From contig JBBDQN010000030.1 in the NCBI GenBank assembly GCA_040905905.1, forward strand, positions 15,782 to 79,781: a DNA stretch of 64,000 bases. The letters are read 5' to 3'. Source of the DNA: Acidimicrobiia bacterium. Its GTDB lineage: Bacteria; Actinomycetota; Acidimicrobiia; Spongiisociales; ZC4RG35. Positions 4,863-57,229 of this stretch are shown in pieces; the stretch's first letter is position 1; each line of letters begins with the position of its first letter. A program made the position numbers and the translations under genes. The notes under the pieces were generated by a model. It worked only from the letters and a program-made list of their open reading frames with translations. It was not told where the DNA came from and ran no database searches.

Positions 4863-4871
4863 AGTTCGAGG

Positions 4872-5234
4872 TCACCCGGTTGCCGCCACGGCCGTCTTCC
4901 TGCCCGGTAACGGGACCAGGATCAGCACCGCCGTCGCGATCCAGAACACAGTTCCGACCTCGGTGGCGGTTATGCGGTTGATGGCAAAGGCCACCTCGGG
5001 GATGAGCAACCCGATCACGAAGCTTCCCCACCCCGGACCGGGCGCGGCCCGGCGCAAAGCGATGACAACGACCAGCGTCACGACCGCCGCTGCTAACCAA
5101 AGCGGCCACCCAGCCTGCAAGCCGTCGGGAACGTTCACGCCACTGTCCATCCCGGACAAGGCCAACACGATCAGACCGAGCCAAAGTGCAATCGAAACAA
5201 CCGCACCGGCGAAGCGCAGCAAAACACTTCTCAT
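4872..5234 (-). CDS. Small hypothetical membrane protein.
   Basis: An ORF with 3-4 hydrophobic helices. The internal ATG at 5234 is chosen as the start, because the longer ORF that runs to 5339 would overlap the divergent methyltransferase. Confidence 0.35.
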   Translation of the reverse strand: MRSVLLRFAGAVVSIALWLGLIVLALSGMDSGVNVPDGLQAGWPLWLAAAVVTLVVVIALRRAAPGPGWGSFVIGLLIPEVAFAINRITATEVGTVFWIATAVLILVPLPGRKTAVAATG

Positions 5235-5330
5235 GTATCCGCTAGCCAGTGGCTTCCTCCCGCTATTTCTCCTGAGAGTATGAATCGGGGACCTTCGTTG
5301 TCGCCCAAACTCGCGTACTTTTAGCGTCGA

Positions 5331-6715: not shown

Positions 6716-7254
6716 GCAGCTCGGAGATGAGACGGGTGTCGGTCGTGGGCACCACGGGGTCTGGCAAGAGCACGTTTGCAGCCGCGCTGGCTGAGCGACT
6801 CGGAGCACCTCATGTCGAACTTGATTCGATCTATCACCAGCCCAATTGGACACCGTTGTCTGACGATGAATTTCGGCGACGGATAGCCGAAATAGCAAAG
6901 GGCGACGCCTGGGTGGTCGACGGCAACTACTCAACGGTGCGCGACATCGTCTGGGGAGCGGCAGACACCATTGTGGCCCTGGCTTATGCGCGCGGCCTAG
7001 TTATGCGCCGAGTCGTTTCCCGCACCTTCGGGAGGATGTGGCGACGTCAGGAGTTGTGGAATGGCAACCGCGAGCGATGGACGAACCTCCTCTCACTCGA
7101 TCCCGAGCAAAACATCATCCTTTGGTCATGGCACACCTACGACAAGAATCATGGGCGCTACCTCGATGCCCTGTCTGACCCTCAATGGGCGCATTTGAAG
7201 TTCTACCGGTTCGTTCACCCCGCAGAGGCCGCCGACTTTCTGGCGAAGCTGTAG
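6712..7254 (+). CDS. P-loop NTPase, adenylate-kinase-like (topology-modulation-protein/FlaR-like).
   Basis: VVGTTGSGKST P-loop close to the N-terminus, an adenylate-kinase-like length, and an ATGA overlap with the upstream gene. Confidence 0.6.
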   Translation: MSSSEMRRVSVVGTTGSGKSTFAAALAERLGAPHVELDSIYHQPNWTPLSDDEFRRRIAEIAKGDAWVVDGNYSTVRDIVWGAADTIVALAYARGLVMRRVVSRTFGRMWRRQELWNGNRERWTNLLSLDPEQNIILWSWHTYDKNHGRYLDALSDPQWAHLKFYRFVHPAEAADFLAKL

Positions 7255-7280
7255 CGACTCGGTAAGTGTTTACTCCCAGG

Positions 7281-8162
7281 TCATCCTTGCTGCACGATCC
7301 GGCCCCAGATAGGGAAGTCGCGAATCGGATAAAGCAGCTCGCGGCTGCCATCGATGTCGTAGGCATAGAGCCCGGGTTCGGGATCCGAGGAGCCACAACC
7401 GGCCTGGTGCCACGTCCACACCAAGGCTTTGCCGTCTGGAAGCCACCCGTAGGCGAAAGAGTTTGGAACCGGAGCGTCATCCCAGAATCCCTCGCCGCTG
7501 AGGTGCCTGGCGACACCGTCGACAATGAACATCGCATGCGGAATCTCACATTCGCCCGAGAATTGGGCCAAGAGGACGCCATCCCCCCGATCGAACACTT
7601 CACGCCAGTGTCCGATGGTCATGCCTCCAACTGGGGGAGAAGCCATTCGCCCAGTGACCTCAACGGTGCCGTCCACGCTCAGGACTCCGATGGTTGGGTC
7701 CGGATCGCCGGTCAACTCGCGACAGAAAACCCTCCACTTCGAGGCTGGTTCGAGGACGGCGTCGACTTGACACCCGTCCTGGATCTCGACAAGGGCCCGC
7801 GCCTCGTCTGTCAGCCGTCTCTGCCGGGACTGATAGAACTCGGGGCCGACGAGCGGGGGTTGGAGATGACCTATCAGCTCGCCGTCGAAGCTGAGGATCA
7901 GCGTTGCGTCGTTGAGGCCCACCTGGATATGGGGTTCACTAGGTGGCGCACCGAGCAAAGGACCGACAGCGACCGTGGTGGTGGTGGTGGTGGTGGCCAC
8001 GGCAGTTGTCGTTTCTTGAGTCAACGATGTCGTCGTGGTCTCGGGATTCGTAACGGTGGAGGGGGCGGGTTGATCGCGGATCGATAGCCCGACGGCGGTG
8101 GCCACGATCACTACGCTCGCAATGGCTGCGGCGGGGGCCAGACCGGCGTGTCGCCGGTTCAT
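7281..8162 (-). CDS. Secreted or membrane-anchored hypothetical protein with a Thr-rich linker.
   Basis: An N-terminal signal anchor (LAPAAAIASVVIVATAV), then TTTTTTTVAV low-complexity sequence, then a globular domain. The start ATG at 8162 overlaps the YihY gene stop as ATGA. Confidence 0.5.
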   Translation of the reverse strand: MNRRHAGLAPAAAIASVVIVATAVGLSIRDQPAPSTVTNPETTTTSLTQETTTAVATTTTTTTVAVGPLLGAPPSEPHIQVGLNDATLILSFDGELIGHLQPPLVGPEFYQSRQRRLTDEARALVEIQDGCQVDAVLEPASKWRVFCRELTGDPDPTIGVLSVDGTVEVTGRMASPPVGGMTIGHWREVFDRGDGVLLAQFSGECEIPHAMFIVDGVARHLSGEGFWDDAPVPNSFAYGWLPDGKALVWTWHQAGCGSSDPEPGLYAYDIDGSRELLYPIRDFPIWGRIVQQG

Positions 8163-9097: not shown

Positions 9098-10075
9098 ATG
9101 CCCGCCGTAACCGTCGAAAATACCCTCACCCTTCCCCGGGTGGCTGAACCAACCGCCGATCCGTCGACTGAACGGAAGGTGAAGTCGGTCACAACTGCCC
9201 CGCGAGGCTATGAAGGGGAGGGGTTTCCGGTCCGGCGCGCCTTTGCCGGTGTCGACCTCGGCGACCTCGATCCTTTTGTCCACCTCGACCAGATGGGTGA
9301 GGTCGAGTACGCCCCGGGCGAGCCCAAGGGCACTCCCTGGCATCCGCACCGCGGGTTTGAAACCGTCACCTACATGATCGACGGGGTGATGCAGCATCAG
9401 GACTCCCACGGTGGTGGCGGGATCATCAGCAATGGCGACACCCAATGGATGACGGCCGGGTCGGGGATTCTCCATATCGAGACACCGCCTGAATGGCTGG
9501 TCGTCTCCGGGGGTCTGTTCCACGGTTTCCAGCTGTGGGTCAACCTCCCTGCGGCCGAGAAGTTCTTGCCGCCCCGATACCAGGACCTCCGTGGTGGCGA
9601 TGTCGCGCTACTGACCACACCGGATGGAGGGGCACTGTTGCGGCTCATCGCAGGTGACCTCGATGGCCACGCCGGTCCCGGGTCGACCCACACCCCGATA
9701 ACCCTGATCCATGCCACGATCGCCCCCGGAGCTCAGGTGCGGCTTCCCTGGCGTTCTGACTTCAACGGCCTTGCCTACGTCCTTTCCGGTCGTGGTGAGT
9801 TTGGGAGCGAGAGGCGGGGCGCCGGTGCCGGCCAATTGGTGGTCTATGGCCCGGGAGAGAGCCTCACAGTGGCGGCCGACCCAAACCAGGACAGCCGCAC
9901 TCCCAACCTCGATGTCCTCATCCTTGGAGGAAAACCGATCCGCGAAGAAGTGGCGTGGTACGGGCCCTTCGTGATGAACACCGAAGCCGAAATCCGCCAG
10001 GCGCTGGAGGACTTCCAGCACGGCAAGTTAGGAACCATCCCCGCCGACGGCATCCAGCCGTACCGACCGGCCTGA
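9098..10075 (+). CDS. Pirin family protein (bicupin).
   Basis: The HPHRGFETVTYMIDG cupin metal-binding motif and the typical pirin length. An AAGGA ribosome-binding site precedes the ATG. Confidence 0.85.
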   Translation: MPAVTVENTLTLPRVAEPTADPSTERKVKSVTTAPRGYEGEGFPVRRAFAGVDLGDLDPFVHLDQMGEVEYAPGEPKGTPWHPHRGFETVTYMIDGVMQHQDSHGGGGIISNGDTQWMTAGSGILHIETPPEWLVVSGGLFHGFQLWVNLPAAEKFLPPRYQDLRGGDVALLTTPDGGALLRLIAGDLDGHAGPGSTHTPITLIHATIAPGAQVRLPWRSDFNGLAYVLSGRGEFGSERRGAGAGQLVVYGPGESLTVAADPNQDSRTPNLDVLILGGKPIREEVAWYGPFVMNTEAEIRQALEDFQHGKLGTIPADGIQPYRPA

Positions 10076-10086
10076 TGCAAAACCCC

Positions 10087-10134
10087 GCTTTTATCACCCG
10101 GACCCACCGAAAAACGGTGGGTCCAGGTCGCAAG
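10087..10134. repeat. Palindromic intergenic repeat, copy A (diverged copy).
   Basis: GCTTTTATCACCCGGACCCACCG-AAAAA-CGGTGGGTCCAGGTCGCAAG. The left arm matches the family consensus, and the outer right arm has diverged. Confidence 0.6.
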
Positions 10135-10160
10135 AGTGGGTAGGGCGGTATTCCTGACCT

Positions 10161-11243
10161 CTAACCGCCGTAACGAATAACGATCAACGCGTCGGACGCG
10201 GATTCGGCTCCCCAAACCTCGCCAGGTCTACCCAACAGTTGGCGTACGTTGCCGCCAGGCGAAGGGAGAGGAAAAGACTCAAAGCCTTCAGTGGCGGGGT
10301 CGAACCGAACCACGGCGCCGGCGCCGCTGAAATCGGTCAACCACACCCGGTCGGTTTCGTCCACGTAGACCGAGTAGGCCTGGGGGCCGTCACCGGGAAG
10401 CGGCCACTCCCGCCAGGTGCCGGTGGCTGGGTCGTAGGCGCCGACCTGTCCGGCGTTGAATTCGCTCACCCAGACGATGCCATTGCTGTCCGACCACACC
10501 CGGCGTGACCCCTGCCCGGGCGTCGGCGGATCAATCTGGTCTGCATTGCCAGTCGCCTTGTCGATGCGAGCGATGTGGTTGCCGGCCAGCGAGGCGTAGA
10601 AAACCTCATTGCTGGGAGTGACGGTGATGCCATAAGGGCCGCGTCCCCCCGGTGCGTCAAAGACCTCGGGCACGGGATTGGCGGGGTCCAGTCTGCCGAA
10701 TGCCCCACCCTGGCCCGTGAACCACAGGATCCCATCGTGATCGAAGACCGCTGTGTTGAGGTTGACTGCCCCACCGGGAAGAGGGAAGACCGCTACCGCC
10801 GACGTTGCAGGGTCGACCCGCGCGATGGCATTGAGACCGGTGTCGGTCACCCAAGCGGCGCCGTCGGGTCCGACAATTACGCCATGGGGAGCGGAGCCGC
10901 TGCCGAGGGGGATCTCCTCGACGTGGCCGCTGACGGGATCGAGTCGACCGAGGACGCCGATGTTCTGACCGGTGTACCAGACAGTCCCGTCAGGAGCCGG
11001 CGCCACGTCATGAGGCCCGCTGCCGGCCGGGACCGGGTACTCCTCGATTGCGGTGACCAGCGGAAGCCCGGTAGTAGTGGTTGTTCCGTCGACGGTAGTG
11101 CCCGTGGTGGTCGCCGTCGCCGGGGATGTGGCCGATGATGTGGAAGAGACGGCGTCCGTCGGACCGGGTGCCGTCGTCGCTTCCTCTCCGGCGCGGCACC
11201 CTGCAATCAATAACAACAACACGACCCCGAACCTGCGCGTCAC
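10161..11243 (-). CDS. Lipoprotein with a Vgb-like (streptogramin B lyase family) beta-propeller.
   Basis: A lipobox (LLLIAGCRAG), a Thr-rich linker, then repeated blades of the form GPhGI..GPDG.hW.T. GTG start at 11243. Confidence 0.55.
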   Translation of the reverse strand: MTRRFGVVLLLLIAGCRAGEEATTAPGPTDAVSSTSSATSPATATTTGTTVDGTTTTTGLPLVTAIEEYPVPAGSGPHDVAPAPDGTVWYTGQNIGVLGRLDPVSGHVEEIPLGSGSAPHGVIVGPDGAAWVTDTGLNAIARVDPATSAVAVFPLPGGAVNLNTAVFDHDGILWFTGQGGAFGRLDPANPVPEVFDAPGGRGPYGITVTPSNEVFYASLAGNHIARIDKATGNADQIDPPTPGQGSRRVWSDSNGIVWVSEFNAGQVGAYDPATGTWREWPLPGDGPQAYSVYVDETDRVWLTDFSGAGAVVRFDPATEGFESFPLPSPGGNVRQLLGRPGEVWGAESASDALIVIRYGG

Positions 11244-11266: not shown

Positions 11267-11318
11267 GCTTTTATCACCCAGACCCGTCGTATAACGACGG
11301 GTCTGGGTGATAAAACGG
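11267..11318. repeat. Palindromic intergenic repeat, copy B. This copy is a perfect palindrome.
   Basis: GCTTTTATCACCCAGACCCGTCG-TATAA-CGACGGGTCTGGGTGATAAAACGG. It sits in the divergent region between 11243 and 11323. Confidence 0.75.
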
Positions 11319-11322
11319 GGTA

Positions 11323-12123
11323 ATGGCAGTTGATGCGCTCTTTCACCGTGACGGCGAACTCTTCATTCCGACGGAACTCACCAGGGGAGGGTGGTCGGAC
11401 GACTCCCAACATGGGAGCCCACCTTCGGGGCTTTTGGCCCGGGCCATAGAGCAGGTGCCAACGGCGGTTCCGATGCAAGTGGTCCGCTTCACCATCGACC
11501 TCTTTCGGGCGGTGCCGCTGTCGCCATTGACGGTGCAGACCACGGTTCGTCGCGATGGCAAGCGAATCCAGGTGGTCGACGCGTTCCTCTACGCCGGAGA
11601 GCTTGAGGTTGGCAGGGTGTCTTCACTCAAGATCCGCCTGGCGGATCTCGACCTCGATGACCGTGACGAAGCCCCCTGGGTGCAGCCGGGCGATCCGGAA
11701 GCGGCCGAACCTATGGCCTGGGCCGATGTCTTCGGAACCCGATCGGGAACCACGCGTTTCCACTACGACGCGGTCGAGATCCGCACCTTCGACAACAGTT
11801 TCCTGGAAATGGGGCCAGGTGTGTCGTGGTTTCGGTTGCTGTTTCCGGTGGTGGCCGGGGAGGAACCGAGTTCTTTTGTCCGTTTGGCGACTATCGCCGA
11901 CATGTCAAACGGCAATTCCCAGGCCCTTGATCCCCGGCGGTGGATCTACGTGAATCCCGACATCACTCTCTACGCTCACCGTCTCCCGGTGGACGAATGG
12001 ATCGGGATGCGCTCGGCGGCCTTCCAGCACCACACCGGCATCGGGTTAGCGGATACCCGTGTGTTCGATCGACAGGGTCCCCTGGGGCGGATCAATCAGG
12101 CCCAGCTGCTCGATCACCGCTAG
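11323..12123 (+). CDS. Thioesterase-like superfamily protein (possibly a double hot-dog, acyl-CoA thioesterase-like).
   Basis: The length and overall sequence pattern resemble TesB-like thioesterase family proteins. This is a weak assignment. Confidence 0.4.
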   Translation: MAVDALFHRDGELFIPTELTRGGWSDDSQHGSPPSGLLARAIEQVPTAVPMQVVRFTIDLFRAVPLSPLTVQTTVRRDGKRIQVVDAFLYAGELEVGRVSSLKIRLADLDLDDRDEAPWVQPGDPEAAEPMAWADVFGTRSGTTRFHYDAVEIRTFDNSFLEMGPGVSWFRLLFPVVAGEEPSSFVRLATIADMSNGNSQALDPRRWIYVNPDITLYAHRLPVDEWIGMRSAAFQHHTGIGLADTRVFDRQGPLGRINQAQLLDHR

Positions 12124-12685
12124 TCCGGAAGCCTTCTACCTCGACCGTGGTCCGTCGTCGTCGCACCTGGAGGAGGGTTCCTGCAACCACCGCAGCGACG
12201 AGTGCCGGCCATGTCCAAACCGGAATCCCGCTCTGAACGTCGGGAGCAACGGTCATGGGTGGCGAGCCCGGTCCGCCTGCCAGTTTCGCCAGCGCTTCTT
12301 CAAGGTCGAGGGTTAGTTCCTGGGTCAGGGTGCAACTGTTGTCCATATAGGGATCAGACGAAGAGGTTGGAAAGAAGACGTATCTGACACCGTTCAGAAA
12401 GGACCGGTCCAAGGACGAGGTTGTCATAAAGCCACCCCGAGGGAAGGGATCGCCAGTGCCCCATATGCTTGCATCAACAGATACGCCGGAGCCCTTCCAC
12501 ACCGTGTCGACCTCGAGAAGGGCCACCCGATTCGAAGAAGAGGTCGAGACAACCGTGCCGGTGAAGACCAGCGGTGCCGCCGCGAAGCCTTGAGCGAAGC
12601 CGGGCGGATCGGCACAAAGTGCTGTTGCCGGCACTGAAAGGGCGAGAGTCGCCAAGCCGAGGCAGATCGCTGCACCCCATTTCAC
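12092..12685 (-). CDS. Secreted hypothetical protein with a C-terminal TM anchor.
   Basis: GTG start. The signal peptide is MKWGAAICLGLATLALSVPATA. The C-terminal hydrophobic segment is followed by RRRR. Confidence 0.45.
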   Translation of the reverse strand: MKWGAAICLGLATLALSVPATALCADPPGFAQGFAAAPLVFTGTVVSTSSSNRVALLEVDTVWKGSGVSVDASIWGTGDPFPRGGFMTTSSLDRSFLNGVRYVFFPTSSSDPYMDNSCTLTQELTLDLEEALAKLAGGPGSPPMTVAPDVQSGIPVWTWPALVAAVVAGTLLQVRRRRTTVEVEGFRTSGDRAAGPD

Positions 12686-12714: not shown

Positions 12715-12732
12715 AACGAACGATCGTTCGTT
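12715..12732. promoter_or_regulatory. Perfect 18-bp palindrome AACGAACGATCGTTCGTT, 12 bp upstream of the paaA start. It is a putative PaaR (TetR) operator.
   Basis: The palindrome is read directly from the sequence. It overlaps the paaA ribosome-binding-site region. The core CGAACGATCGTTCG fits the CNAACGNNCGTTNG pattern I recall for PaaR operators. Confidence 0.5.
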
Positions 12733-12743: not shown

Positions 12744-13673
12744 ATGAACGGAGACGAAAAGTTTCAGGCTTTGCTCGACGCCGAGGACAAGATCGAACCC
12801 ACCGATTGGATGCCCGAGGCCTATCGCCAGACTCTGATCCGCCAGATCGCTCAACACGCCCATTCCGAAGTCATTGGCATGCAGCCCGAAGGCAATTGGA
12901 TCTCGCGCGCTCCCTCTCTGCGCCGCAAGGCGATCCTCATCGCCAAAGTCCAGGACGAAGCCGGCCACGGCCTCTACCTCTACTCGGCTGCCGAGACTCT
13001 CGGCGTCACCCGTGACGAGCTCTACGACCTTCTCCACACGGGCAAGCAAAAGTACTCCTCGATCTTCAACTACCCCACCCTGTCGTGGGCGGACATGGGC
13101 GCGATCGGATGGCTCGTCGATGGTGCCGCTATCACCAATCAGGTGATGTTGAAACGCTGCTCCTATGGCCCCTACGCCCGAGCGATGGTTCGCATCTGTC
13201 TCGAGGAGTCATTCCATCAAAGACAGGGCTACGAGATCTTGATCGCCCTCTGTAATGGGACGACCGAACAGAAGGCGCTTGCCCAAGATGCGCTCAATCG
13301 CTTTTGGTGGCCGTCGTTGATGATGTTCGGGCCCCACGACTCTGAGTCGGCTCACAGCGAGCAGTCGATGAAGTGGAAGATCAAGCGGGTCTCCAACGAT
13401 GACCTCCGCCAGCAGTTCGTCGACATGACCGTGCCCCAGGCCGACTACCTCGGCCTCACCATCCCTGACCCCGAGCTCAAGTGGAACCCCGAGCGCGGTC
13501 ATTACGACTTCGGCCCCATCGACTGGGACGAGTTCTGGGCCGTGGTCAAAGGCAACGGACCCATGAACCGGGAGCGGCTTGCACACAAACGTCTGGCCTG
13601 GGAGGAGGGCGCCTGGGTACGAGAAGCCGCGGTCGCCCACTCTGCCAAGTCATCCACCAAGGAAGTGGCTTGA
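12744..13673 (+). CDS. paaA: 1,2-phenylacetyl-CoA epoxidase subunit A.
   Basis: Ferritin-like di-iron oxygenase sequence with the PaaA signature ([16 protein letters not shown]...EAGHGLYLY). First gene of a five-gene paa operon. Confidence 0.9.
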
Positions 13674-13674
13674 G

Positions 13675-14016
13675 ATGACTTATTCGGTACCAAAGGTGGC
13701 GGGCGAGGCCGAAATCGAAGTCGGACGCGACCAGGGCGCCGCCCAATGGCCCCTGTGGGAGGTCTTCATCCGTCAGAAGCGAGGTCTCTCCCATGTCCAT
13801 GTCGGATCGCTGCACGCCCCCGACTCCGAAACCGCTCTGCTCTCGGCCCGGGATGTCTACACCCGCCGGGTGGAAGGTGTCAGCATCTGGGTGGTCGCCT
13901 CCACCGACATCACCGCCTCTGACCCCGATGACGCCGCTTCCTTCTTCGAGTCGATCGAGAAGCCTTACCGGCACGCCACCCACTACGAGATCCCCGATGA
14001 AGTGGGGCAGATGTGA
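13675..14016 (+). CDS. paaB: 1,2-phenylacetyl-CoA epoxidase subunit B.
   Basis: A small protein, MTYSVPKVAGEAEIEVGRDQGAAQWPLWEVFIRQKRG. Its position directly after paaA fits. Confidence 0.85.
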   Translation: MTYSVPKVAGEAEIEVGRDQGAAQWPLWEVFIRQKRGLSHVHVGSLHAPDSETALLSARDVYTRRVEGVSIWVVASTDITASDPDDAASFFESIEKPYRHATHYEIPDEVGQM

Positions 14017-14693
14017 TGGCCGCCCTGAATCATGGCGATGACAATCTCGTCATTGCCCAACGGCTAGCCGAGTGGGTTTCGCGCGGTCCCGATCTGGAAA
14101 CGGACATCGCCCTCGGCAACATCGCCCTCGATCATCTTGGAGTTGCTCGAGCGCTCCTGGGCAGTGCCGAGGAGGATCGCAGTGAGGACGATCTAGCCAT
14201 GCTGCGTTCCGAACGCGAGTTCACCAACCTGCTCATCTGCGAGCAGCCCAACGGGGACTTCGCCCAGACCATCGCCCGCCAGTTCCTGTTCGACGCCTAT
14301 CAGTTGGGACTCTGGGAGAAGTTGAGCACGGATGCCGGCGCGACCATCGCCGGTGTGGCCGGCAAGGCGCTGTTGGAGGCTCGGTACCACTTCCGTTTCT
14401 CGTCTTCATGGGTCATACGGTTGGGAGACGGCACTCCCGAGAGCCGGCGACGCATGGAGGAAGGCTTGGTGCTGATGTGGCGATTTGTGGGCGAGATGTT
14501 CGATCAATCCCCCGACCTCCGGTCGGATTGGGATCGTCGGGTCGACGAGGTCATGACCACGGCCACCCTCCATCGGCCCGCCGACGTCTTTCAACGCCGG
14601 GGAGGAAGGGAAGGCATCCACACCGAACACCTTGGTCACCTGTTGGCGGAGATGCAGTGGATGGCGCGCGCCTATCCAGGAGCTTCGTGGTGA
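14016..14693 (+). CDS. paaC: 1,2-phenylacetyl-CoA epoxidase subunit C.
   Basis: PaaC-like ferritin fold. The start overlaps the paaB stop as TGATG. Confidence 0.8.
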   Translation: MAALNHGDDNLVIAQRLAEWVSRGPDLETDIALGNIALDHLGVARALLGSAEEDRSEDDLAMLRSEREFTNLLICEQPNGDFAQTIARQFLFDAYQLGLWEKLSTDAGATIAGVAGKALLEARYHFRFSSSWVIRLGDGTPESRRRMEEGLVLMWRFVGEMFDQSPDLRSDWDRRVDEVMTTATLHRPADVFQRRGGREGIHTEHLGHLLAEMQWMARAYPGASW

Positions 14694-15127
14694 TCGCCGA
14701 ACTCCTCGAACAGGTCAAGGACCCCGAGATTCCCGTTCTGACTATCGCCGACCTCGGCATTCTGCGTGGCTTTGATGTCGACGGCTCCAAAGTGACGGTC
14801 ACCATCACTCCTACTTACTCAGGATGCCCCGCCATGGACATGATCAAGGCGGACATCGCCCGGGTTCTCGAAGAGAAGGGCTTCAGCGCAACGATTCGCA
14901 CCACCTATTCACCGCCCTGGACGACCGACATGATCAGCCGGGAGGGAAAAGCCAAACTGGCGCGGATCGGAATCGCCCCGCCCACCCCGGTGAGCGAGGT
15001 GCGTTGTCCTCGCTGTGCGACCGGTGACCCACGGACTGTGAGCGAGTTTGGCTCCACAGCCTGCAAGGCCCTCATGGTCTGTCCGAACTGTCGCGAGCCC
15101 TTCGACCTCTTTAAAGAGCTGCGATGA
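14687..15127 (+). CDS. paaD: Phenylacetate-CoA oxygenase subunit PaaD (PaaJ), a DUF59/MIP18-family protein.
   Basis: The C-terminal CPRCATGD...CPNC Cys pairs match the PaaD family. The GTG start overlaps the paaC stop. Confidence 0.75.
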   Translation: MVIAELLEQVKDPEIPVLTIADLGILRGFDVDGSKVTVTITPTYSGCPAMDMIKADIARVLEEKGFSATIRTTYSPPWTTDMISREGKAKLARIGIAPPTPVSEVRCPRCATGDPRTVSEFGSTACKALMVCPNCREPFDLFKELR

Positions 15128-16185
15128 GCGCACCGGTCTTTCATCGGCTCCGAGTCATCGAAGTAACACCTCTCACCGATGACGCCGTCGTCCTCACTTT
15201 TGAGGTCCCCGATGACTTGCGAACCGAATTCGCCTTTGCGGCTGGCCAACACGTCACCGTCAAGGCCGACATCGACGGCGCCGACGTGCGACGGAGTTAC
15301 TCCATCTGCTCCAACGCCAGCGAGGGCAAACTTCGAATCGGCGTAAAGCGACTCCCTGGTGGCGCATTCTCCAACTGGGCTATTTCAGATCTCAAGGCCG
15401 GCACAGTCTTGGAGGTGATGCCTCCGGTGGGGGAGTTCACTGTGATCACCAGGCCGGTTCACTACGGCGCGGTAACGGCGGGAAGCGGGATCACACCGGT
15501 GCTTTCCTTGGTGTCGACCACCCTGGAGGCCGAGCCTGGCTGTAGGTGGACCGTCATTTTCGGCAATCGCAGCGCCGACTCTGTGATGTTCCTCGATGAA
15601 CTCGAGGGTCTCAAGGATCGTTATCCGCACCGACTGCAAATCATCCACATTCTCTCCCGCGAACAGGCAGCGACACCGCTTTTTTCGGGTCGGATCGACG
15701 GACCCAAGCTCGACGAGCTGTTGGATCGGGTGGTGGGTCCCGTCATCCCCGACGAGTGGTTCCTATGTGGTCCCTACGAAATGGTGATTGCCGCCCGGGC
15801 GGTCTTGGAGACGAGGGGGCTCCACCCCGAAAAGATCCGCGACGAGCTCTTCTTCGCAGGACCGCTTGATCCATCCACGCTTCCAACGGAACCCGAGGAA
15901 GCGGAAGACACGGTCCGGTTGCAGATCACCCTGGCCGGACGGTCGACCACAACCCGGATGAGTCCCGACTCGTCGATTCTCGATGCGGCCTTGCGGGTCC
16001 GGGGCGAGCTTCCCTACTCGTGCAAGGGAGGCATGTGTGCGTCGTGCAAAGCCAGACTTGTCGAGGGCGAAGTCCGCATGGACAAGAACTGGGCTCTGGT
16101 CGAGAGCGAACTCGCCGCGGGCTATGTGCTTACCTGCCAGGCGCATCCCCTGACCGAGTCGGTGACCGTGGACTACGACGTATGA
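15124..16185 (+). CDS. paaE: Phenylacetate-CoA oxygenase reductase subunit (FNR-like, with a C-terminal 2Fe-2S ferredoxin).
   Basis: RxYS FAD-binding motif, an NAD-binding domain, and the C-terminal CKGGMCASCKARL plant-type ferredoxin motif. Confidence 0.85.
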   Translation: MSAPVFHRLRVIEVTPLTDDAVVLTFEVPDDLRTEFAFAAGQHVTVKADIDGADVRRSYSICSNASEGKLRIGVKRLPGGAFSNWAISDLKAGTVLEVMPPVGEFTVITRPVHYGAVTAGSGITPVLSLVSTTLEAEPGCRWTVIFGNRSADSVMFLDELEGLKDRYPHRLQIIHILSREQAATPLFSGRIDGPKLDELLDRVVGPVIPDEWFLCGPYEMVIAARAVLETRGLHPEKIRDELFFAGPLDPSTLPTEPEEAEDTVRLQITLAGRSTTTRMSPDSSILDAALRVRGELPYSCKGGMCASCKARLVEGEVRMDKNWALVESELAAGYVLTCQAHPLTESVTVDYDV

Positions 16186-16742
16186 CCACTCGGGCTGTTC
16201 GTTCTCGCGACGACGTGGTGCGTACGGCCGGGAAGCTCTTTGCCGAACGCGGCTATCACGGCACCTCGATGCGGGACCTGGCTGCTGAGTTGGGGCTGTT
16301 GGGCTCGTCGTTGTACAGCCATATATCTTCGAAGGAAGACCTGTTGGTCGAAGTAGTCGAGAGAGGTGCTGATCTATTTCAGAGTTCGGCGGAGGCGGCT
16401 CTGGCGACATCGGGGACGGCCGCCAGCCGGCTAAAGGCCCTGGTTGCTGGGCACGTGGACGTGGTACTCGATCACCTTGATGAGGTGCGGACATTCCTCA
16501 ACGAGGCCGGTGTCCTTGACGAGGTACACAGAAGTCGGGTTCTGGCAGCCCGTGACCGCTACGAGGCTTCCTATCGTGAGGTCTTGTCCGAGATGAAGGT
16601 GGCTGATCCGAAACTGGCCGCGATCTTCCTTCTCTCGATCCTTAACGCCCTGGAGCGGTGGTATCGGCCGACCGGCTCCCTCCAGCGCCAAGATTTGGTC
16701 GACGAGATCCTCGGGTTCGCATTGAACGGGATCAGGCGATGA
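16182..16742 (+). CDS. paaR: TetR/AcrR family transcriptional regulator, the putative paa operon repressor.
   Basis: The N-terminal TetR HTH is AGKLFAERGYHGTSMRDLAAELGL. Its ATG overlaps the paaE stop. The symbol rests on genomic context only. Confidence 0.7.
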   Translation: MTTRAVRSRDDVVRTAGKLFAERGYHGTSMRDLAAELGLLGSSLYSHISSKEDLLVEVVERGADLFQSSAEAALATSGTAASRLKALVAGHVDVVLDHLDEVRTFLNEAGVLDEVHRSRVLAARDRYEASYREVLSEMKVADPKLAAIFLLSILNALERWYRPTGSLQRQDLVDEILGFALNGIRR

Positions 16743-17191
16743 CCAATCGAAGGATTCTTCAACCCCGCCACATAGGAGTAATTGCGATCGGCCTGGTCTT
16801 GGTAGCGGTGGTCGCGGCCGCCGTGATTACTACCCTGCGACCCGTTGAGGATCTCGATCCCAACTCACCCGAAGGGGCGGTGCAGGGATTCTTTCAAGCC
16901 CTCGAGGCGAGGGACTACAAGGCTGCCCACACCTTGCTGTCGTCGAAGCTGCAGACCGACTGCACGCCGACCGACCTCGCCACTTACCTCTCCGACTTCG
17001 ATCGCGTTGTCATCGATGAGGTGGTTCCCAGCGACTCCGCGACGCTTGTGAGGGTTGAGGTCCAACATATAGATGCGACCGATCCTCTCAATCCCTACAC
17101 GTATATGGAACTTCTCGACTTCGACATCGAACGTGAGAACGTCAGGCCGGTGATAAGCCGACTTCCCTGGCCCTTCTTCTGTGAGGCTTGA
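16739..17191 (+). CDS. Membrane-anchored hypothetical protein (N-terminal TM followed by a roughly 100-aa soluble domain).
   Basis: ATGA overlap with the paaR stop. One TM helix (IGVIAIGLVLVAVVAAAVITTL) is followed by a soluble domain with no recognisable motif. Confidence 0.5.
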   Translation: MTNRRILQPRHIGVIAIGLVLVAVVAAAVITTLRPVEDLDPNSPEGAVQGFFQALEARDYKAAHTLLSSKLQTDCTPTDLATYLSDFDRVVIDEVVPSDSATLVRVEVQHIDATDPLNPYTYMELLDFDIERENVRPVISRLPWPFFCEA

Positions 17192-17194
17192 ACC

Positions 17195-18814
17195 ATGACA
17201 GTCATAAGCGTGCTCTTCTTAGTGGCGGTGTTGGTTGCGGTTCCTGTGATCCTCTTGACCCGCAAGCGAACTTCGGGAACCGGTGGTTCTCCAGCCGAGG
17301 TCCTCGTGTATCTCATCCTCGCCATAGCGGCCCTGATCGCGACGAACGCTTTCTCGTCCCTGGTCGAGCTGATCGTGCCGGGCCAGGACGTCATCGTCCG
17401 AGACACCGACGAACTGGCTCTGTCGCTAGCGACGTTGATGGTCTCGGGGGTAGTCGCGTTCCTCCTGTGGCGCCGGCTCGAAGCGCAAAAGGTGGTTGGA
17501 GATCGGCCCGCCCGCGCGCTCTACGTGTCGGTAGTTACCGGGTTCAGCATGGCCGTGGTGGCGGCATCGACCGCTCGACTCCTCCTCTGGGTGGTTGGTC
17601 AGGCAGATCTGTCGGAGGTGGCGCTTGCCGATCTCGTCGCTTTTGCTGCCGCCTGGTGGCTGCACGAACGGGCCCGTCGACCGGGAGTGAGCCTCGACGT
17701 AATCCGATCCCTGGCGGGAAGCCTGGTCGGCTTGACGCTGTCTGTCACGGGGCTGGTTGTGGTGCTCCGATCCGCCCTCGCGACGGTCTTTCGGGCGGGG
17801 ACGGTGGTGGCGGGTTCGGGGGTCTGGGATGGAGTCATTCTTGGGCTCGTATTGCTCGCGGTCGGTGTGCCCTACCTCTGGTGGTTCTGGTCCCGCGACG
17901 TTTTCCGAACACCTTCCACCGAGCGGCAAGGCTATGCGACTTTGGTCGCCATCGTGGCGTGGTTCGTTGGGGTCTCAGCAGCTGGAGCGCTTGTGTACTC
18001 CGTGTTCGTACGGGCTTTCGGAATTGAGCCGTCAGGCGTGGCTAGCTCACCTTTGCCGATCCAAATAGCCCTTTTGGCGACCGCGGGGCTGACCTACTGG
18101 CACCATCGTGACATTCTCGGACCGGCCCGTACAGACGCCGTGCGTGTGCTGGCTTACCTGTTCTCGTCGGCAGCATTTGTCGTCGGGGCGGCTTCTTCGG
18201 TCACCTTGATCGTCAACTTGATCGACAACCTCACCGAGGGCTCGGTGGCTGGGACCGGTGCCCGCACGGTGCTGGCGGCGGTTGTCGCTCTAGCCGTCTC
18301 ACTTGCGGTCCTGTGGGTCTATTGGCTGCCAGCCCAGCGTTTGGCCCAGGAACCTGCCGAGGATCGGGCAACATCTCGGCGTCTGGCCATCGTGGGATTG
18401 CTCACGGCATCGGCGGTGACCGCGGTGGGCGGATTGATAGCAGTCGTCTATGGACTGTTGCGGGCGGCATTGGGTAGTGACGCCGATATCGGCGACATAT
18501 TGACCTGGTCGGTTCCGCTGACGGTCGTGACCGGTCTTCTGACCTGGTACTTCGCCAAAATCAGGCCTCGCCGGGCGGAGCCAGGGATAGCCGGTACCCA
18601 GCCGAAGGACTTGACGGTGACGGTGGTCGCAGCCGATCCCGGGCCGCTTCCGGTAATGGTTCACAAGGCTCGGTTGCTCCATCGCACCGACGGCGTTGGA
18701 GTGGTTGACCAGGAACGGGCTGCGGAAATAGTCGCAGCATTGGCCCAGGTCGACACCCCGGCCGCCATCGTCATCGTCGAAGCGGACTCGTTCGATGTGA
18801 TCCCGCTGGCCTGA
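17195..18814 (+). CDS. Large polytopic membrane protein (about 12 TM) with an 80-aa C-terminal soluble tail. Function unknown.
   Basis: A 539-aa ORF made of Trp/Arg-flanked hydrophobic helices, with no transporter family motif that I recognise. Confidence 0.55.
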   Translation: MTVISVLFLVAVLVAVPVILLTRKRTSGTGGSPAEVLVYLILAIAALIATNAFSSLVELIVPGQDVIVRDTDELALSLATLMVSGVVAFLLWRRLEAQKVVGDRPARALYVSVVTGFSMAVVAASTARLLLWVVGQADLSEVALADLVAFAAAWWLHERARRPGVSLDVIRSLAGSLVGLTLSVTGLVVVLRSALATVFRAGTVVAGSGVWDGVILGLVLLAVGVPYLWWFWSRDVFRTPSTERQGYATLVAIVAWFVGVSAAGALVYSVFVRAFGIEPSGVASSPLPIQIALLATAGLTYWHHRDILGPARTDAVRVLAYLFSSAAFVVGAASSVTLIVNLIDNLTEGSVAGTGARTVLAAVVALAVSLAVLWVYWLPAQRLAQEPAEDRATSRRLAIVGLLTASAVTAVGGLIAVVYGLLRAALGSDADIGDILTWSVPLTVVTGLLTWYFAKIRPRRAEPGIAGTQPKDLTVTVVAADPGPLPVMVHKARLLHRTDGVGVVDQERAAEIVAALAQVDTPAAIVIVEADSFDVIPLA

Positions 18815-18833
18815 GGGCACGATACTGGGGACC

Positions 18834-19928
18834 GTGTCCGCTGAGATCGCCCGCTTTTTTGACACCCGGGCCGCCTACACGATGTTTGTCAACGCCACCG
18901 ACGAGAAGTCGGTCGTGGCCGATCGGGTGGGTGCCGAACTGGCCAACATCGACGTCTCTCACCCCGGCCTCCGGGTCTTCGATGCCGGCATGGGCGATGG
19001 TGCACTTCTCGCCCATCTCATGCGTCGGATGCATCAGCGGTTCCCCTTCATTCCATGGTTGATCGTGGCCAAGGAGATCAGCATCGAAGACGTCCGTCAG
19101 GCCCTGGCCCGGCTGCCCGACCGTTTCCTTGAACACCCGGAGATGGTCTTTATCGTGACCAATCTTCCGTTTCGCGATGCTCCCGCTCTGGCTGACCCGG
19201 GTCTGGCCTGGCGGCAGGTGGCGCTGAAGGGTTCCACCACTCGTGAATTCACGGATCAGATCGAGAACCTCTACCCGCAACTCGCCATCGATTGGGAAGT
19301 CAGGACAAGCGAGGTGACCGGGAACCCTCTCAATGTTCGCCCGGCGGCGCTGGTGCTCTATCGCCAGGACCGCGGGTTCTTGGTCGACCCCTTGATTCCG
19401 CGGCCAGGGCGGACCGAGCTCAGATATGACCTGGTGGTGGCGTCACAGGCGTATCGGGCCCGTACTCCAGTACAGCGAAAGGTCAAGAGTGTCCTGGTCC
19501 CGCTGGCCCGCAGCCTGGCCCCGGGGGGCCGGCTGGTAGGGGTGCAGGCACGTGGCGACGACCCCGGTCTGGAGATCATCCGCCGGGTTTGGCCCGACGA
19601 GGATCCCTTCCCCCATCGGCGGACTGCGATCCTCGCCGAAGCCCGCCGGCAACTAGCCGGGGAACCGGGCCTGGTCTACCCCGATCTGAGCGACGAGGAG
19701 TCGGTGTTCCGGTTCCGGCTCCACACAATGCCGTCGGTCGAGGCCGAGCACATCGGAACCTCTTCCGTAGTGGCGGCCTGGAACGCTGCCACCTATGTTG
19801 CCCAGATCGACGAGAAACGTCTGGCGGAGGCGACGGCGACCGGTGGCTATCTCGACGCGACCCGGCGCGTAATGGAGCAACACGGACAAATCTGGTGGAA
19901 CGACGAGGCCTATCTAATCACCCGTTAG
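18834..19928 (+). CDS. Hypothetical protein with a possible Rossmann-fold methyltransferase-like N-terminal domain.
   Basis: VFDAGMGDGALL resembles MTase motif I. An acidic residue sits in LIVAKEIS, and VTNLPF resembles a degenerate (D/N)PP(F/Y) motif IV. Weak assignment. Confidence 0.45.
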   Translation: MSAEIARFFDTRAAYTMFVNATDEKSVVADRVGAELANIDVSHPGLRVFDAGMGDGALLAHLMRRMHQRFPFIPWLIVAKEISIEDVRQALARLPDRFLEHPEMVFIVTNLPFRDAPALADPGLAWRQVALKGSTTREFTDQIENLYPQLAIDWEVRTSEVTGNPLNVRPAALVLYRQDRGFLVDPLIPRPGRTELRYDLVVASQAYRARTPVQRKVKSVLVPLARSLAPGGRLVGVQARGDDPGLEIIRRVWPDEDPFPHRRTAILAEARRQLAGEPGLVYPDLSDEESVFRFRLHTMPSVEAEHIGTSSVVAAWNAATYVAQIDEKRLAEATATGGYLDATRRVMEQHGQIWWNDEAYLITR

Positions 19929-19931: not shown

Positions 19932-19981
19932 GCTTTAGCGACCCAGACCCATCGCCAAGCGATGGGTCTGGGTGATAAAAA
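19932..19981. repeat. Palindromic intergenic repeat, copy C. The outer left arm is variant.
   Basis: GCTTTAGCGACCCAGACCCATCG-CCAAG-CGATGGGTCTGGGTGATAAAAAGG. It lies between the stop at 19928 and the gabT start. Confidence 0.7.
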
Positions 19982-20004: not shown

Positions 20005-21276
20005 GTGACCAATGCAGAACTGATGGAGCGTCGCAACCGGGCGTTTGCCCGGGGGATCGGGGCGACGTTCCCGATCTTTGTTGACCGCGCACTCAACGCC
20101 GAGCTGTGGGATGTGGAGGGTCGCCGGTATATCGACTTCACCGGTGGGATCGCCGTTCTCAACACAGGCCATCTCCATCCCCAGGTGGCGGAAGCAGTTT
20201 CGGCCCAGCTCGCCCGATTCAGCCATACCTGTTTCATGGTTGCCCCGTACGAGCCGGCCGTGGCTCTGGCTGAGCGGCTCAATCAACTCGTCCCTGGATC
20301 CACTCCCAAGAAGACCGCCCTCTTCAGCACCGGAGCCGAGGCGGTGGAAAACGCCGTGAAGATTGCCCGTGCCTTCACCGGCCGGGCCGGGGTGATCGCC
20401 TTTTCGGGAGGCTTCCACGGTCGCACGCTCCTTGCCCTGGCGCTTACCGGCAAGGTGGCGCCCTATAAGACCGGGTTTGGACCTTTCCCCTCCGAGGTCT
20501 TCCACGCCCCCTATCCGCATCCCTACCGCGGCGTCTCCACCGCCGACGCCCTCGCCGGGGTCGAGCACATCTTCAAAGAAGACATCGAGCCCGAAAGGGT
20601 GGCGGCTTTGATCATCGAGCCGGTCCTGGGGGAAGGTGGCTATATCCCGGCTCCGTCCGATTTCCTGGTGGGATTGCGTGAGATCTGCGATCGCCACGGC
20701 ATCGTCCTCATTGCCGACGAGATCCAGACTGGCTTTGCCCGCACCGGCCGCTGGTTTGCCATCGAACACGCCGGGATCGAGGCCGACCTGGTGACGATGG
20801 CAAAGTCGCTGGCGGGCGGCTTCCCGCTCTCGGCGGTTACAGGCAAGGCCGAGATCATGGATGCTCCCGGGCCCGGCGGACTAGGCGGAACATACGCCGG
20901 CTCGCCCATGGCCTGCGCGGCCGCCCTGGCGGTGATCGATGTGATCGAACATGAAGGTCTGGCCGAACGCGCCCAGTCAATTGGTGGAAAGGTAGTGAAG
21001 ACCCTGGAAGGCTGGGCCGAGTCCGATCCGCGGATCGGAGAGGTAAGGGGCCTCGGGGCAATGGTCGGAGTGGAGTTGGTAACCGACCCCACCACTCGCC
21101 AGCCCGACGCCGACCGCACCAAGGCGATCACCATGGCGGCTCTCGAAGAAGGACTGATCCTGCTGTCCTGCGGTGTGTACGGGAACGTTCTGCGAGTGAT
21201 GGTGCCTCTGACCGCCTCCGACGAAATCGTCGAAGAGGGCCTGGAGGCAATGGAGCGGGCTTTCGCTCGCACCTGA
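20005..21276 (+). CDS. gabT: 4-aminobutyrate aminotransferase-like class III PLP-dependent aminotransferase.
   Basis: Class-III aminotransferase motifs are present, including the PLP-lysine region DEIQTGFARTGRWFA. GTG at 20005 follows a GGAGAGAG ribosome-binding site. The upstream GTG at 19972 lies inside the repeat. Confidence 0.8.
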   Translation: MTNAELMERRNRAFARGIGATFPIFVDRALNAELWDVEGRRYIDFTGGIAVLNTGHLHPQVAEAVSAQLARFSHTCFMVAPYEPAVALAERLNQLVPGSTPKKTALFSTGAEAVENAVKIARAFTGRAGVIAFSGGFHGRTLLALALTGKVAPYKTGFGPFPSEVFHAPYPHPYRGVSTADALAGVEHIFKEDIEPERVAALIIEPVLGEGGYIPAPSDFLVGLREICDRHGIVLIADEIQTGFARTGRWFAIEHAGIEADLVTMAKSLAGGFPLSAVTGKAEIMDAPGPGGLGGTYAGSPMACAAALAVIDVIEHEGLAERAQSIGGKVVKTLEGWAESDPRIGEVRGLGAMVGVELVTDPTTRQPDADRTKAITMAALEEGLILLSCGVYGNVLRVMVPLTASDEIVEEGLEAMERAFART

Positions 21277-22517: not shown

Positions 22518-23798
22518 TCAGCGTCCGGTTTCGTAGTCGGCTAGAGCCTGGTCGATGAGGTCGATGGCCCACTCGAGCTCGGGCTGCGTCGTGACCAACG
22601 GTGGAACGAAGCGGATGATGTTGGCATCGGGGCCGCAGTCGATGACGATCAGGTCCCGCTCCAAACAGAAGCGGTGGACCGAGCCGAAGGCCTCCGGGTC
22701 TGGTTCCCTGGTCCCCGGATCTTTGACTAGCTCGACTCCGATCATAAGGCCAAGGCCGCGGACGTCACCGATGGTCGGATGATCGGTGGCGAGCTTGCCG
22801 AGGCGTTCAAAGGCGTGGGCAGACAGCTCCCGGGCGTGGGGAAGCAGGTCCCCCATCGTGTCCATCACCGCGACGGCGGCGGCGCAGGCCACCGGGTTGC
22901 CGCCAAACGTTGTGCCATGCGATCCCCGTGGCCAGGCGTCCATCATCTCCGCGGAGGCGCCATAGGCAGACAACGGCAGACCGTTGGCAATGCCTTTGCC
23001 GAGGGCGATCACATCGGGTTTGGCCTGGTAGTGATCGGATGCGAACCACTCGGCGGTGCGCCCAAAACCGGATTGCACCTCGTCGTAAACGAGTTTGATG
23101 CCGTGCTTGCGCGCCAGCTCTGCAAGTTCGTCGAGAAAACGGGCCGGGGCCGCGTAATACCCGCCTTCACCCTGTACCGGTTCGATCAGGAAACCGGCGA
23201 TGTTGGCAGGGAACACCTCGTGTTTGAACATGAGGGACAGCTCCCAGAGGCAGTGATCGACGGCCTGCTCCTCGGTCATTCCCCACCGGTAGGGATGGGG
23301 GAAGGGGGCGACGAAGACCGAGCCGAGAATGGGGTGGTAACCCTCGCGGTATTTGGCGTTCGAGGTCGTGTAGGAGACCGATCCCATCGTGCGGCCATGA
23401 AAGGCACCCCGGAACACCACCAGACCCTGACGTCCGGTGACTTTGCGGGTGAGTTTGACCGCAGCTTCCACAGCTTCGGCTCCGGAGTTGGCGAACCCGA
23501 ACTTCTCGATGGCCGGGGGGGTGATGGCCCGCAACCGTTCGGCCGTCTCGACGATGCTGTCGTAGCGGAAGATGCAGCCGGAATGGATGAACCGATCGAT
23601 CTGGGCGTGAACGGCGGCGACCACGGCGGGGTGATTGTGGCCGAGGTTGGTCACGGCGGTACCACAGGCAAAGTCGGCGTACCTGCGCCCGTCGGCGGTG
23701 TGGACCCAGATGCCTTCGGCCCGTTCGGCGATCACGTCGGTGTCGAAGGCGATGACCGGGGCAATCAAGCCTTGGTGGCGGGAGATGAGATCGGACAT
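22518..23798 (-). CDS. Class III PLP-dependent aminotransferase (GabT/ornithine aminotransferase-like), a paralog of the gabT at 20005.
   Basis: Class-III aminotransferase motifs are present, including YDEVQSGFGRTAEWFA. The start is at MSDLISRH. Confidence 0.8.
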   Translation of the reverse strand: MSDLISRHQGLIAPVIAFDTDVIAERAEGIWVHTADGRRYADFACGTAVTNLGHNHPAVVAAVHAQIDRFIHSGCIFRYDSIVETAERLRAITPPAIEKFGFANSGAEAVEAAVKLTRKVTGRQGLVVFRGAFHGRTMGSVSYTTSNAKYREGYHPILGSVFVAPFPHPYRWGMTEEQAVDHCLWELSLMFKHEVFPANIAGFLIEPVQGEGGYYAAPARFLDELAELARKHGIKLVYDEVQSGFGRTAEWFASDHYQAKPDVIALGKGIANGLPLSAYGASAEMMDAWPRGSHGTTFGGNPVACAAAVAVMDTMGDLLPHARELSAHAFERLGKLATDHPTIGDVRGLGLMIGVELVKDPGTREPDPEAFGSVHRFCLERDLIVIDCGPDANIIRFVPPLVTTQPELEWAIDLIDQALADYETGR

Positions 23799-24113
23799 GG
23801 GAAGTGCTCCTTGTGAGATGGCAGGAAGGACTACGGCGGGCCGTGGTCTATGGAGCGGCGAAGAGACTCGCCCGATCGTGTCGGGGCGCACAAGGCATGG
23901 CCACATCCTACCGACCGGCGGTGCCCTCCTCTATGCTGCCGACCGGCGAGTCTCTCGCCTCACCTGCTGACCTGGTGCCCACACCACCTGGCGAGGCGCG
24001 GGGAAAGGTGGCCTTTTGCCATCGAGACGCTTTCAACGTGTTGATCCCAAACATGACGGGAGCCGCCTGACAGAGGTGTGGGCTCGTGGTGGCCCCGTGT
24101 GTGGAGGCACAAC

Positions 24114-57204: not shown

Positions 57205-57229
57205 CGATGGGTCTGGGTGATAAAAACGG
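57177..57229. repeat. Palindromic intergenic repeat, copy D. It overlaps the 3' end of the YcaQ-like CDS.
   Basis: GCGCTTTTATCACCCAGACCCATCG-TTTGA-CGATGGGTCTGGGTGATAAAAACGG. The TGA stop of the upstream gene sits in the 5-nt loop. Confidence 0.75.

Follow-up and report, generated by a model that had tools for sequence, protein, structure and literature searches.

Does a phenylacetate operon that runs on into three unfamiliar genes extend beyond the known pathway, or do these genes simply lie behind it? The question is raised by a stretch of 64,000 nucleotides (nt; guanine-cytosine content ~62%) from an Acidimicrobiia bacterium (assembly GCA_040905905.1, contig JBBDQN010000030.1, positions 15,782 to 79,781), referred to here as the window. 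The open reading frame (ORF) map and the raw sequence place nine co-directional genes at 12744-19928 on the forward strand, in the order paaABCDE-paaR-X1-X2-X3, and the last three are the subject of this analysis. An earlier note on this DNA had proposed that the trio is a membrane-associated accessory module co-regulated with phenylacetate epoxidation, perhaps for uptake, sensing or modification of an aromatic intermediate. The gene coordinates, the overlap, the gaps and the protein lengths of 150, 539 and 364 amino acids (aa) given there were all confirmed in the raw sequence. The TGA of paaR (16740-16742) and the ATG of X1 (16739-16741) share a 4-nt ATGA overlap, X2 starts with the ATG at 17195 after a gap of 3 nt from the end of X1 at 17191, and the GTG of X3 at 18834 follows the end of X2 at 18814 by 19 nt; from paaB through X1, all junctions are 4-nt overlaps or 1-nt gaps. 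X1, X2 and X3 are genuine genes, though uncharacterised, because each has conserved homologues (12, 47 and 1849, respectively). On balance, it seems probable that they form a lineage-specific cassette located 3' of a PaaR-controlled operon and standing outside phenylacetate catabolism, taken as a composite that includes the transcriptional read-through and the roles of X3 and of X1 and X2 discussed below.

The evidence that carries this reading comes from gene neighbourhoods. In a PaaR-seeded metagenome scan, in which contigs were counted if they held at least 1.5 kilobases (kb) 3' of paaR, 16 related paaABCDE-paaR operons (PaaR 58-66% identical) end at paaR and lack X1, X2 and X3; the genes that follow include argG-argH, a 2-oxoacid:ferredoxin oxidoreductase, a Big_9/DUF11 surface protein and an AI-2E transporter. 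The paa operon ends at paaR in most relatives, and the downstream genes follow local synteny. The X3 family was surveyed at 87 loci, and X1, X2 and paa are all absent nearby at 81 of these. The other six carry both X1 and X2, all with an X3 at least 69% identical to that of the window, and paa is visible only at those X1/X2-bearing loci whose contig extends far enough 5'. X1 and X2 were seen only in this lineage, always immediately 5' of X3. Among the contigs examined, X2 homologues of at least 37% identity all lie in a thioesterase-paaABCDE-paaR-X1-X2-X3 region, and the only more distant relative examined, a DUF5671 protein of 28% identity, stands in an unrelated context. The outcome that the earlier note had named as speaking against its proposal, the trio in unrelated contexts of relatives with no linkage to paa, is largely what was found, in the X3 homologues of the 81 loci, in the contigs with a detached trio described below and in the 16 operons that end at paaR.

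Of 14 contigs from that lineage of Acidimicrobiia, 11 have the trio next to paaR. In the other three (L006, L007 and L109), paaR and X1 stand apart, with an epimerase gene and, on the minus strand, a HAD hydrolase gene between them, and no PaaR box was found near the detached trio in L006. The distance from paaR to X1 varies in the lineage (-4, 33, 61 or 94 nt, or about 1.75 kb with two genes between), and the ATGA coupling recurs in L088, L093 and L094. The X1-X2 and X2-X3 junctions are at most 34 nt or overlapping in every contig that carries them. Conservation within the lineage is not evidence of function, because the synteny reaches as far as purL/purF/purM. An accessory module of phenylacetate epoxidation, membrane-associated and co-regulated by PaaR, which would take up, sense or methylate an aromatic intermediate, could account for the repeated ATGA coupling, for the single PaaR box of the entire chain, for the position of the trio in the 11 contigs and for the presence of aromatic-catabolic genes (pcaHG, LigM, extradiol dioxygenase) beside X3 homologues elsewhere. 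The same proposal has to accommodate 16 paa operons without the trio, three contigs in which an opposite-strand gene intervenes and the trio has no PaaR box near it, the independence of X3 from paa at 81 of 87 loci, an X2 without any transporter family or fold, and the failure of the known accessory families (PaaX, PaaY, PaaI, permease, porin) to match. It is considered unlikely. The functional tie to phenylacetate epoxidation suggested earlier finds no support in these neighbourhoods, and the trio as a paa accessory module is weakly supported; it is a positional neighbour of paa that is probably co-transcribed with it here.

Co-transcription was assessed from the regulator, its operator and the signals along the chain. 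A perfect 18-base-pair (bp) palindrome, AACGAACGATCGTTCGTT, corresponds to a PaaR-type operator and lies 12 nt 5' of the paaA ATG; it occurs in a single copy in the window, where chance would give 0.02 matches. Its core, GAACGNNCGTTC, is found once each, just 5' of paaA, in L004, L006, L088, L089, L090 and L092, and the CGAACGATCGTTCG box 5' of paaA is conserved in six relatives. The consensus of Thermus thermophilus PaaR is CNAACGNNCGTTNG (PMC6651687), and the operator of the window fits it. The product of the TetR-type gene matches the Pfam families TetR_N (E 3e-13) and TetR_C_24 (E 9e-22), and its closest solved relatives are TetR-family regulators, including KstR2 of fatty-acid metabolism, DarR and T. 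thermophilus 3vpr. As the palindrome is unique, stands 5' of paaA in relatives and fits the PaaR consensus, this gene can reasonably be called paaR. The arrangement resembles T. thermophilus TTHA0973-0968, where a TetR-type PaaR is encoded together with paaABCDE. Unlike in the clusters of T. thermophilus and of actinobacteria, however, paaR is the last paa gene of the window and not the first, it precedes three non-paa genes, and the remainder of the pathway is located elsewhere. As a separate observation, an unrelated metagenome contig of 362 kb (L144) holds an X3 homologue (4125-5219, minus strand, 51% identity) and a TetR gene 38% identical to PaaR (7001-7507, plus strand), divergent and ~1.8 kb apart.

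No second PaaR box was found near the trio, either in the window or in L006, and the lone recognisable site serves the paaA promoter. A scan for terminator-like sites between paaE and the X3 stop found none, which is weak evidence in this phylum. A scan for canonical sigma-70 promoters, uninformative in this phylum, likewise gave nothing of note inside the chain; the plus strand has a single weak sigma-70-like match (18705-18732, in X2), no more than chance would give. The internal promoter or terminator after paaR, named in the earlier note as a refuting outcome, was not found within the limits of such scans. Given the ATGA overlap, the single PaaR box and the absence of terminator-like sites in the chain, X1-X3 are most likely co-transcribed with paa here, which is the simplest reading; the co-regulation proposed earlier accordingly fits the layout, at the level of sequence. 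In the mechanism favoured here, X1-X3 would be transcribed by read-through from the paaA promoter, the only place with a PaaR operator, and the transcript would probably end at the long palindromic hairpin after X3.

That hairpin belongs to a dispersed element. It has an RNA fold energy of -38.4 kcal/mol (z = -6.4) directly after the X3 stop, and the element, of ~50 nt, has the form TTTTATCACCCAGACCCRTCG-loop-CGAYGGGTCTGGGTGATAAAA with arms of up to 21 bp. Copies are present in the window at 11277-11307, 19942-19972 and 57187-57217, and they differ through compensatory changes in the stem. In the relative L088, the element occupies two equivalent positions, 4652-4682 and 12748-12778, so that the thioesterase-paa-X1-X2-X3 block is bracketed by two copies in both the window and L088. 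A classical intrinsic terminator was considered for the hairpin and rejected, as the U-tract precedes the stem and a copy also lies in a divergent promoter region (11277). The element is better described as a dispersed palindrome similar to repetitive extragenic palindromic (REP) sequences.

Among the three proteins, X3 offers the clearest lead. As the earlier note had described it, it is soluble and methyltransferase-like: no transmembrane (TM) segment is present, the S-adenosylmethionine (SAM) motif I reads FDAGMGDG, and the AlphaFold2 model (predicted local distance difference test, pLDDT, 89; predicted template modelling score 0.88) adopts the Rossmann-like class-I SAM-methyltransferase fold. 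A Foldseek search of the PDB returned 197 matches at E of 1e-3 or lower, the top 50 being nearly all class-I methyltransferases, and histamine N-methyltransferase 1jqd (E 3e-9) heads the list, with OxaG, GtmA and TmtA next. X3 has the methyltransferase core and cap domain of 1jqd, OxaG (5w7k) and GtmA/TmtA (5jgk/5egp), and like them it carries motif I (GxGxG) and an acidic residue behind strand 2, at Foldseek E of 3e-9 to 1e-6, identities of 9-12% and TM-scores of 0.4-0.6. It differs from them in that a long insertion separates strand 4 from strand 5, and in the family-specific invariant motifs KEISxEDVR, EHPE, GNP and HTMPS..IGTS. The best Pfam match is Methyltransf_12 (E 0.049; 14.8 bits, below the cutoff of 30), the NCBIfam matches of 15.1 and 14.2 bits fall below cutoffs of 155 and 350, and a profile search against PDB sequences gave only marginal methyltransferase matches with E of ~0.4 or higher. 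The X3 family lacks a Pfam or NCBIfam model, and no description of the family was found in the literature searched.

Across the 87 loci, conservation reaches at least 97% at 73 of the 364 positions of X3, and many of these belong to the cap region. They include motif I, D50-A-G-M-G-D55(-G), which follows the predicted strand 46-50, E81 after strand 75-80 (strand 2), and T109-N110 after strand 4, the last as part of a conserved T-N-x-x-F/Y. Constraint this high speaks for an enzyme that acts on a defined substrate, and X3 would bind SAM and methylate a small N- or O-nucleophile. X3 is the local orthologue of an unnamed family that spans several phyla and whose members would be class-I SAM-dependent methyltransferases of the small-molecule type. 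A role in anti-phage defence was also considered and rejected: the PADLOC scan gave one weak match only, to mad2 (E 5e-4), and this covers residues 36-101 of X3 with its SAM motif.

The family itself is large and patchily distributed. It is present in at least 547 genomes of the GTDB-representative collection and comprises 1085 clusters at 50% identity. Members occur in Acidimicrobiia, in metagenome-assembled genomes (MAGs) labelled Acidobacteriota and in the Alpha, Beta and Gamma classes of Proteobacteria, with identities of 48-63% along their full length. A protein from an Acidimicrobiia MAG is 100% identical to X3, and no annotated homologue was found to be plasmid-borne. All-against-all ORF clustering revealed no neighbour common to all 87 loci, and conserved partners exist within clades only. 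Outside the Acidimicrobiia, these partners are consistent and show a recurrent link to one-carbon metabolism. Among 40 genes immediately 3' of X3 homologues, Pfam assigned 27 to methylenetetrahydrofolate reductase (MTHFR), five to Meth_synt_2 (core MetE-like), two to S-adenosylhomocysteine (SAH) hydrolase (AdoHcyase), one to SAM synthetase and one to GCV_T. In tblastn searches over the 87 loci, an MTHFR-like gene was detected at 47, nearly always directly 3' of X3, a core-MetE-like gene at 24, LigM at eight and pcaH at seven. Two of the MTHFRs were tested, and both belong to the S6MTHFR type, matching PDB 7XG9 with E of 5e-56 and 1e-60 as against 1e-7 to 1e-12 for classical MTHFR, and seven loci carry a different, divergent MTHFR. 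Enzymes of the S6MTHFR type oxidise methyl-tetrahydrofolate (CH3-THF) and act with THF-dependent demethylases (PMC11868366).

Some of these loci also contain genes for the breakdown of aromatic compounds. In Pseudolabrys sp. Root1462 (locus L072), the order is pcaF-pcaHG-X3-MTHFR-(LigM)-core MetE, with X3 at 9698-11107, and the GCV_T protein of this strain is identified as LigM by its NCBIfam score of 742 bits (cutoff 580). Two MAGs labelled Acidobacteriota show the order extradiol dioxygenase-X3-core MetE. The X3 family is genomically tied to enzymes of the methyl-THF and methionine cycle and, in some genomes, to aromatic O-demethylation. This recalls the module of LigM and S6MTHFR (type-4 MTHFR) of Sphingobium lignivorans SYK-6, since X3 homologues are operonic with an S6MTHFR-type MTHFR and, in some cases, with LigM and pcaHG. 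An X3-like gene is, however, absent from the published SYK-6 module, ligM-metF-ligH (PMC11868366). The window differs further in that no MTHFR, core MetE or LigM was found in it, and the association is one of guilt by association at the level of the family. A role of the X3 family in the methyl-group economy of the cell would be in keeping with these neighbours. A more specific proposal is that the family is an unrecognised SAM-dependent enzyme or SAM-binding partner at the methyl-THF node of aromatic demethylation, a companion of S6MTHFR-type MTHFR and core MetE that was recruited together with X1 and X2 to the paa tail here; it is put forward as a speculation with a low chance of being right in this form.

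The neighbours of X3 in other Acidimicrobiia are of another kind. There, X3 follows a ROK-family gene and has hflX opposite it, lies between hrpB and a class-III aminotransferase gene, follows an M24 peptidase gene, or stands beside a LigM-like gene. As these neighbours are mostly housekeeping genes, the one-carbon link rests mainly on Proteobacteria and a few lineages. A housekeeping N-methyltransferase acting on RNA or protein, for which the neighbours would be irrelevant, could be read from the proximity to HflX, HrpB and the methionine-aminopeptidase-like M24 peptidase, from the T-N-x-x-F/Y stretch, which may resemble the (D/N)PP(Y/F) motif of amino-methyltransferases, and from M.BseCI among the Foldseek matches. 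Still, the closest structures are those of small-molecule methyltransferases that possess a cap domain, the family is patchily distributed among taxa, and the tight operon that it forms with MTHFR and core MetE in Alpha-, Beta- and Gammaproteobacteria would be hard to explain, which leaves this the least probable of the explanations weighed here.

Proteobacterial X3 homologues occur in addition as a longer form. These proteins of ~470 aa (L030-L087) carry, at 48 loci, an extra conserved N-terminal domain of ~55 aa with the motif ..IAxFCRxxGxAESTFGRxAVNDGKxVxRLRxG.., and the long-form X3 is the first gene of the MTHFR operon. The domain matches nothing in Pfam, and a profile search of the PDB gave only spurious, low-complexity ubiquitin matches; a recognised helix-turn-helix (HTH) was considered for the extension and rejected, as neither Pfam nor PDB DNA-binding domains matched. 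Beside the proteobacterial X3-MTHFR pair, no further conserved partner such as a demethylase was found, the neighbours being heterogeneous. A search for riboswitches 5' of proteobacterial X3 homologues (eight loci, Rfam gathering thresholds) found only tRNAs. In a Hyphomicrobiaceae MAG (L064), 15 tRNA genes lie on one strand at 3407-5538, a few hundred bases 5' of a long-form X3 homologue. In two distant relatives of the long form, P0183 and P0186, both the GxGxG motif and the acidic position behind strand 2 have degenerated, and some branches of the family may be non-catalytic.

The long form invites comparison with SahR, an SAH sensor that combines an ArsR-type HTH with a methyltransferase-like domain and regulates methionine-cycle genes in Proteobacteria. 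Both join a methyltransferase-like domain to an extra N-terminal domain and are encoded beside metF-type genes. By analogy, X3 might be a non-catalytic sensor of SAM or SAH, with the N-terminal domain of the long form binding DNA and controlling the adjacent MTHFR and MetE genes. That the ~55-aa domain of the 48 loci looks HTH-like by eye and heads the MTHFR operon would suit such a sensor, as would the loss of the GxGxG motif in P0183 and P0186, which is as in non-catalytic derivatives. Unlike SahR, however, the X3 family has no ArsR or other recognisable HTH, consistent with the failure of the domain to match any Pfam family or PDB DNA-binding domain. The X3 of the window begins at the methyltransferase core, and the N-terminal domain is missing from all Acidimicrobiia forms and from the core-MetE-operonic forms (L020-L031) as well. 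Near-invariance at 73 of 364 positions across phyla, including the cap region, is also more typical of an enzyme. A sensor is hence judged a doubtful explanation, and a small-molecule methyltransferase is preferred for X3.

X2 is a polytopic membrane protein for which the earlier note had given about 12 TM helices and no transporter signature. The second point stands, whereas 13 TM helices are predicted and a domain match was obtained: three stretches of X2 match Pfam DUF5671 (PF18920; E 9e-24; 84.3 bits against a cutoff of 28.4). In the AlphaFold2 model (pLDDT 84.9), 13 long helices are followed by a small alpha/beta domain at the C-terminus. One TM helix at the N-terminus precedes three DUF5671 repeats in tandem, each of ~145 aa and four helices, and the alpha/beta domain, at ~474-538, would be cytoplasmic according to the positive-inside rule. 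Repeats R2 and R3 align with an hhalign probability of 94%. Compared with the DUF5671 proteins of Pfam, X2 thus stands apart in having three tandem copies together with an N-terminal helix and a C-terminal soluble domain. Foldseek found no related solved structure in the PDB (best E 0.19; TM-scores up to 0.19), the C-terminal domain matched no PDB sequence, and no mention of DUF5671 was found in the literature searched. Neither Pfam nor Foldseek revealed similarity to transporter families or folds (MFS, ABC, MATE, APC or similar). As modelled, X2 is not recognisable as a transporter, and the role in uptake suggested earlier finds no footing in it.

X1 has a single TM segment, as previously described: basic residues (RR..R) precede one hydrophobic segment at residues 12-30, and the protein is predicted to be oriented N-in with an extracytoplasmic domain of ~115 aa. 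Its match to the Rv0361-family model NF051431 (E 6e-7; 29.6 bits) lies below the cutoff of 37, PF25976 LpqB_N appears only as weak precomputed matches on X1 homologues, and no match to PDB sequences was obtained. The 12 homologues are 69-94% identical, and the two that could be placed lie directly 5' of X2 homologues. None of X1, X2 and X3 matches a Paa family (PaaF-K, PaaX, PaaY, PaaZ, PaaI, permease or porin) in Pfam or NCBIfam, in agreement with the earlier placement of the trio outside the canonical paa genes. X1 and X2 may together build a complex in the envelope, one that cooperates with X3 or recruits it.

Several points weigh against a lineage-specific cassette unrelated to phenylacetate catabolism and working as outlined. 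The linkage to paa persists in 11 of 14 contigs despite divergence of X2 down to 37% identity, and some selection for the linkage may be at work. An internal promoter may lie inside paaR. The mostly housekeeping neighbours of X3 in Acidimicrobiia (ROK/HflX, HrpB, M24 peptidase) sit uneasily with a role in methyl-group economy, and a physical interaction among X1, X2 and X3 is purely conjectural.

Table 1 Features of the paa-X1-X2-X3 block and its borders in the window.
Feature	Coordinates	Strand	Basis or remark
Palindromic element, second copy	11271-11315		Divergent intergenic region, just 5' of the thioesterase gene; 5' block boundary
Thioesterase gene	11323-12123		
PaaR-type operator	12715-12732		5' of paaA
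paaA	12744-13673	+	Pfam PaaA_PaaC, E 2e-97
paaB	13675-14016	+	Start inferred from homologue lengths; PaaB Pfam match in relatives with the same gene order
paaC	14013-14693	+	Pfam
paaD	about 14690-15127	+	Start inferred from homologue lengths; PaaD Pfam match in relatives
paaE	15124-16185	+	Pfam FAD_binding_6, NAD_binding_1, Fer2 (FAD/NAD/2Fe-2S reductase)
paaR	16182-16742	+	TetR-type repressor, 186 aa; ATG overlaps paaE stop
X1	16739-17191	+	Single-pass membrane protein, 150 aa
X2	17195-18814	+	Polytopic membrane protein, 539 aa
X3	18834-19928	+	Soluble protein, 364 aa; GTG start
Palindromic element after X3	19936-19980		15-bp perfect stem 19941-19973, A-tract behind; 3' block boundary
gabT	20005-21276	+	4-aminobutyrate--2-oxoglutarate transaminase; next gene after X3, outside the trio; TIGR00700, 593 bits against a cutoff of 507

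The surroundings of the block show further variation among relatives. Between the thioesterase gene and paaA, a minus-strand ORF of 197 aa (12092-12685) encodes a protein whose N-terminus resembles a signal peptide and whose C-terminal tail is hydrophobic and rich in Arg; in L088, only 50 nt separate the thioesterase gene from paaA, and the ORF of the window looks like an insertion. A probe for the ECH gene of relatives found no match in the window, and the ABC-2, HAD and epimerase genes of relatives are likewise absent from it. Two class-III aminotransferase genes lie nearby, gabT and a second at 22518-23906 on the minus strand. Such a gene stands directly 3' of X3 also in L004, in L088, in one further relative contig, and in L012 and L013; the last two are Acidimicrobiia that lack X1 and X2, yet have the aminotransferase gene directly after X3. 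In the further relative contig just mentioned, the aminotransferase gene overlaps the X3 stop by 4 nt.

If the lineage-specific cassette is the right reading, the paa operon would functionally end at paaR, and the trio would add no step to phenylacetate catabolism; a known type of operon would here carry a lineage-specific tail of three genes. In X2, the tail provides a confident 13-helix model for a triple-DUF5671 protein without a structural relative in the PDB. In X3, it points to a large unnamed methyltransferase family within the class-I superfamily, whose association with S6MTHFR-type MTHFR is apparently unreported. The physiological partners of S6MTHFR and its electron acceptor are still open questions (PMC11868366). 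Should the speculative role of X3 at the methyl-THF node hold, the oxidation of aromatic rings and the handling of methyl groups would be co-expressed in this lineage. The X3 family is the main lead, and its presence in a cultured carrier, Pseudolabrys sp. Root1462, makes the question directly testable.

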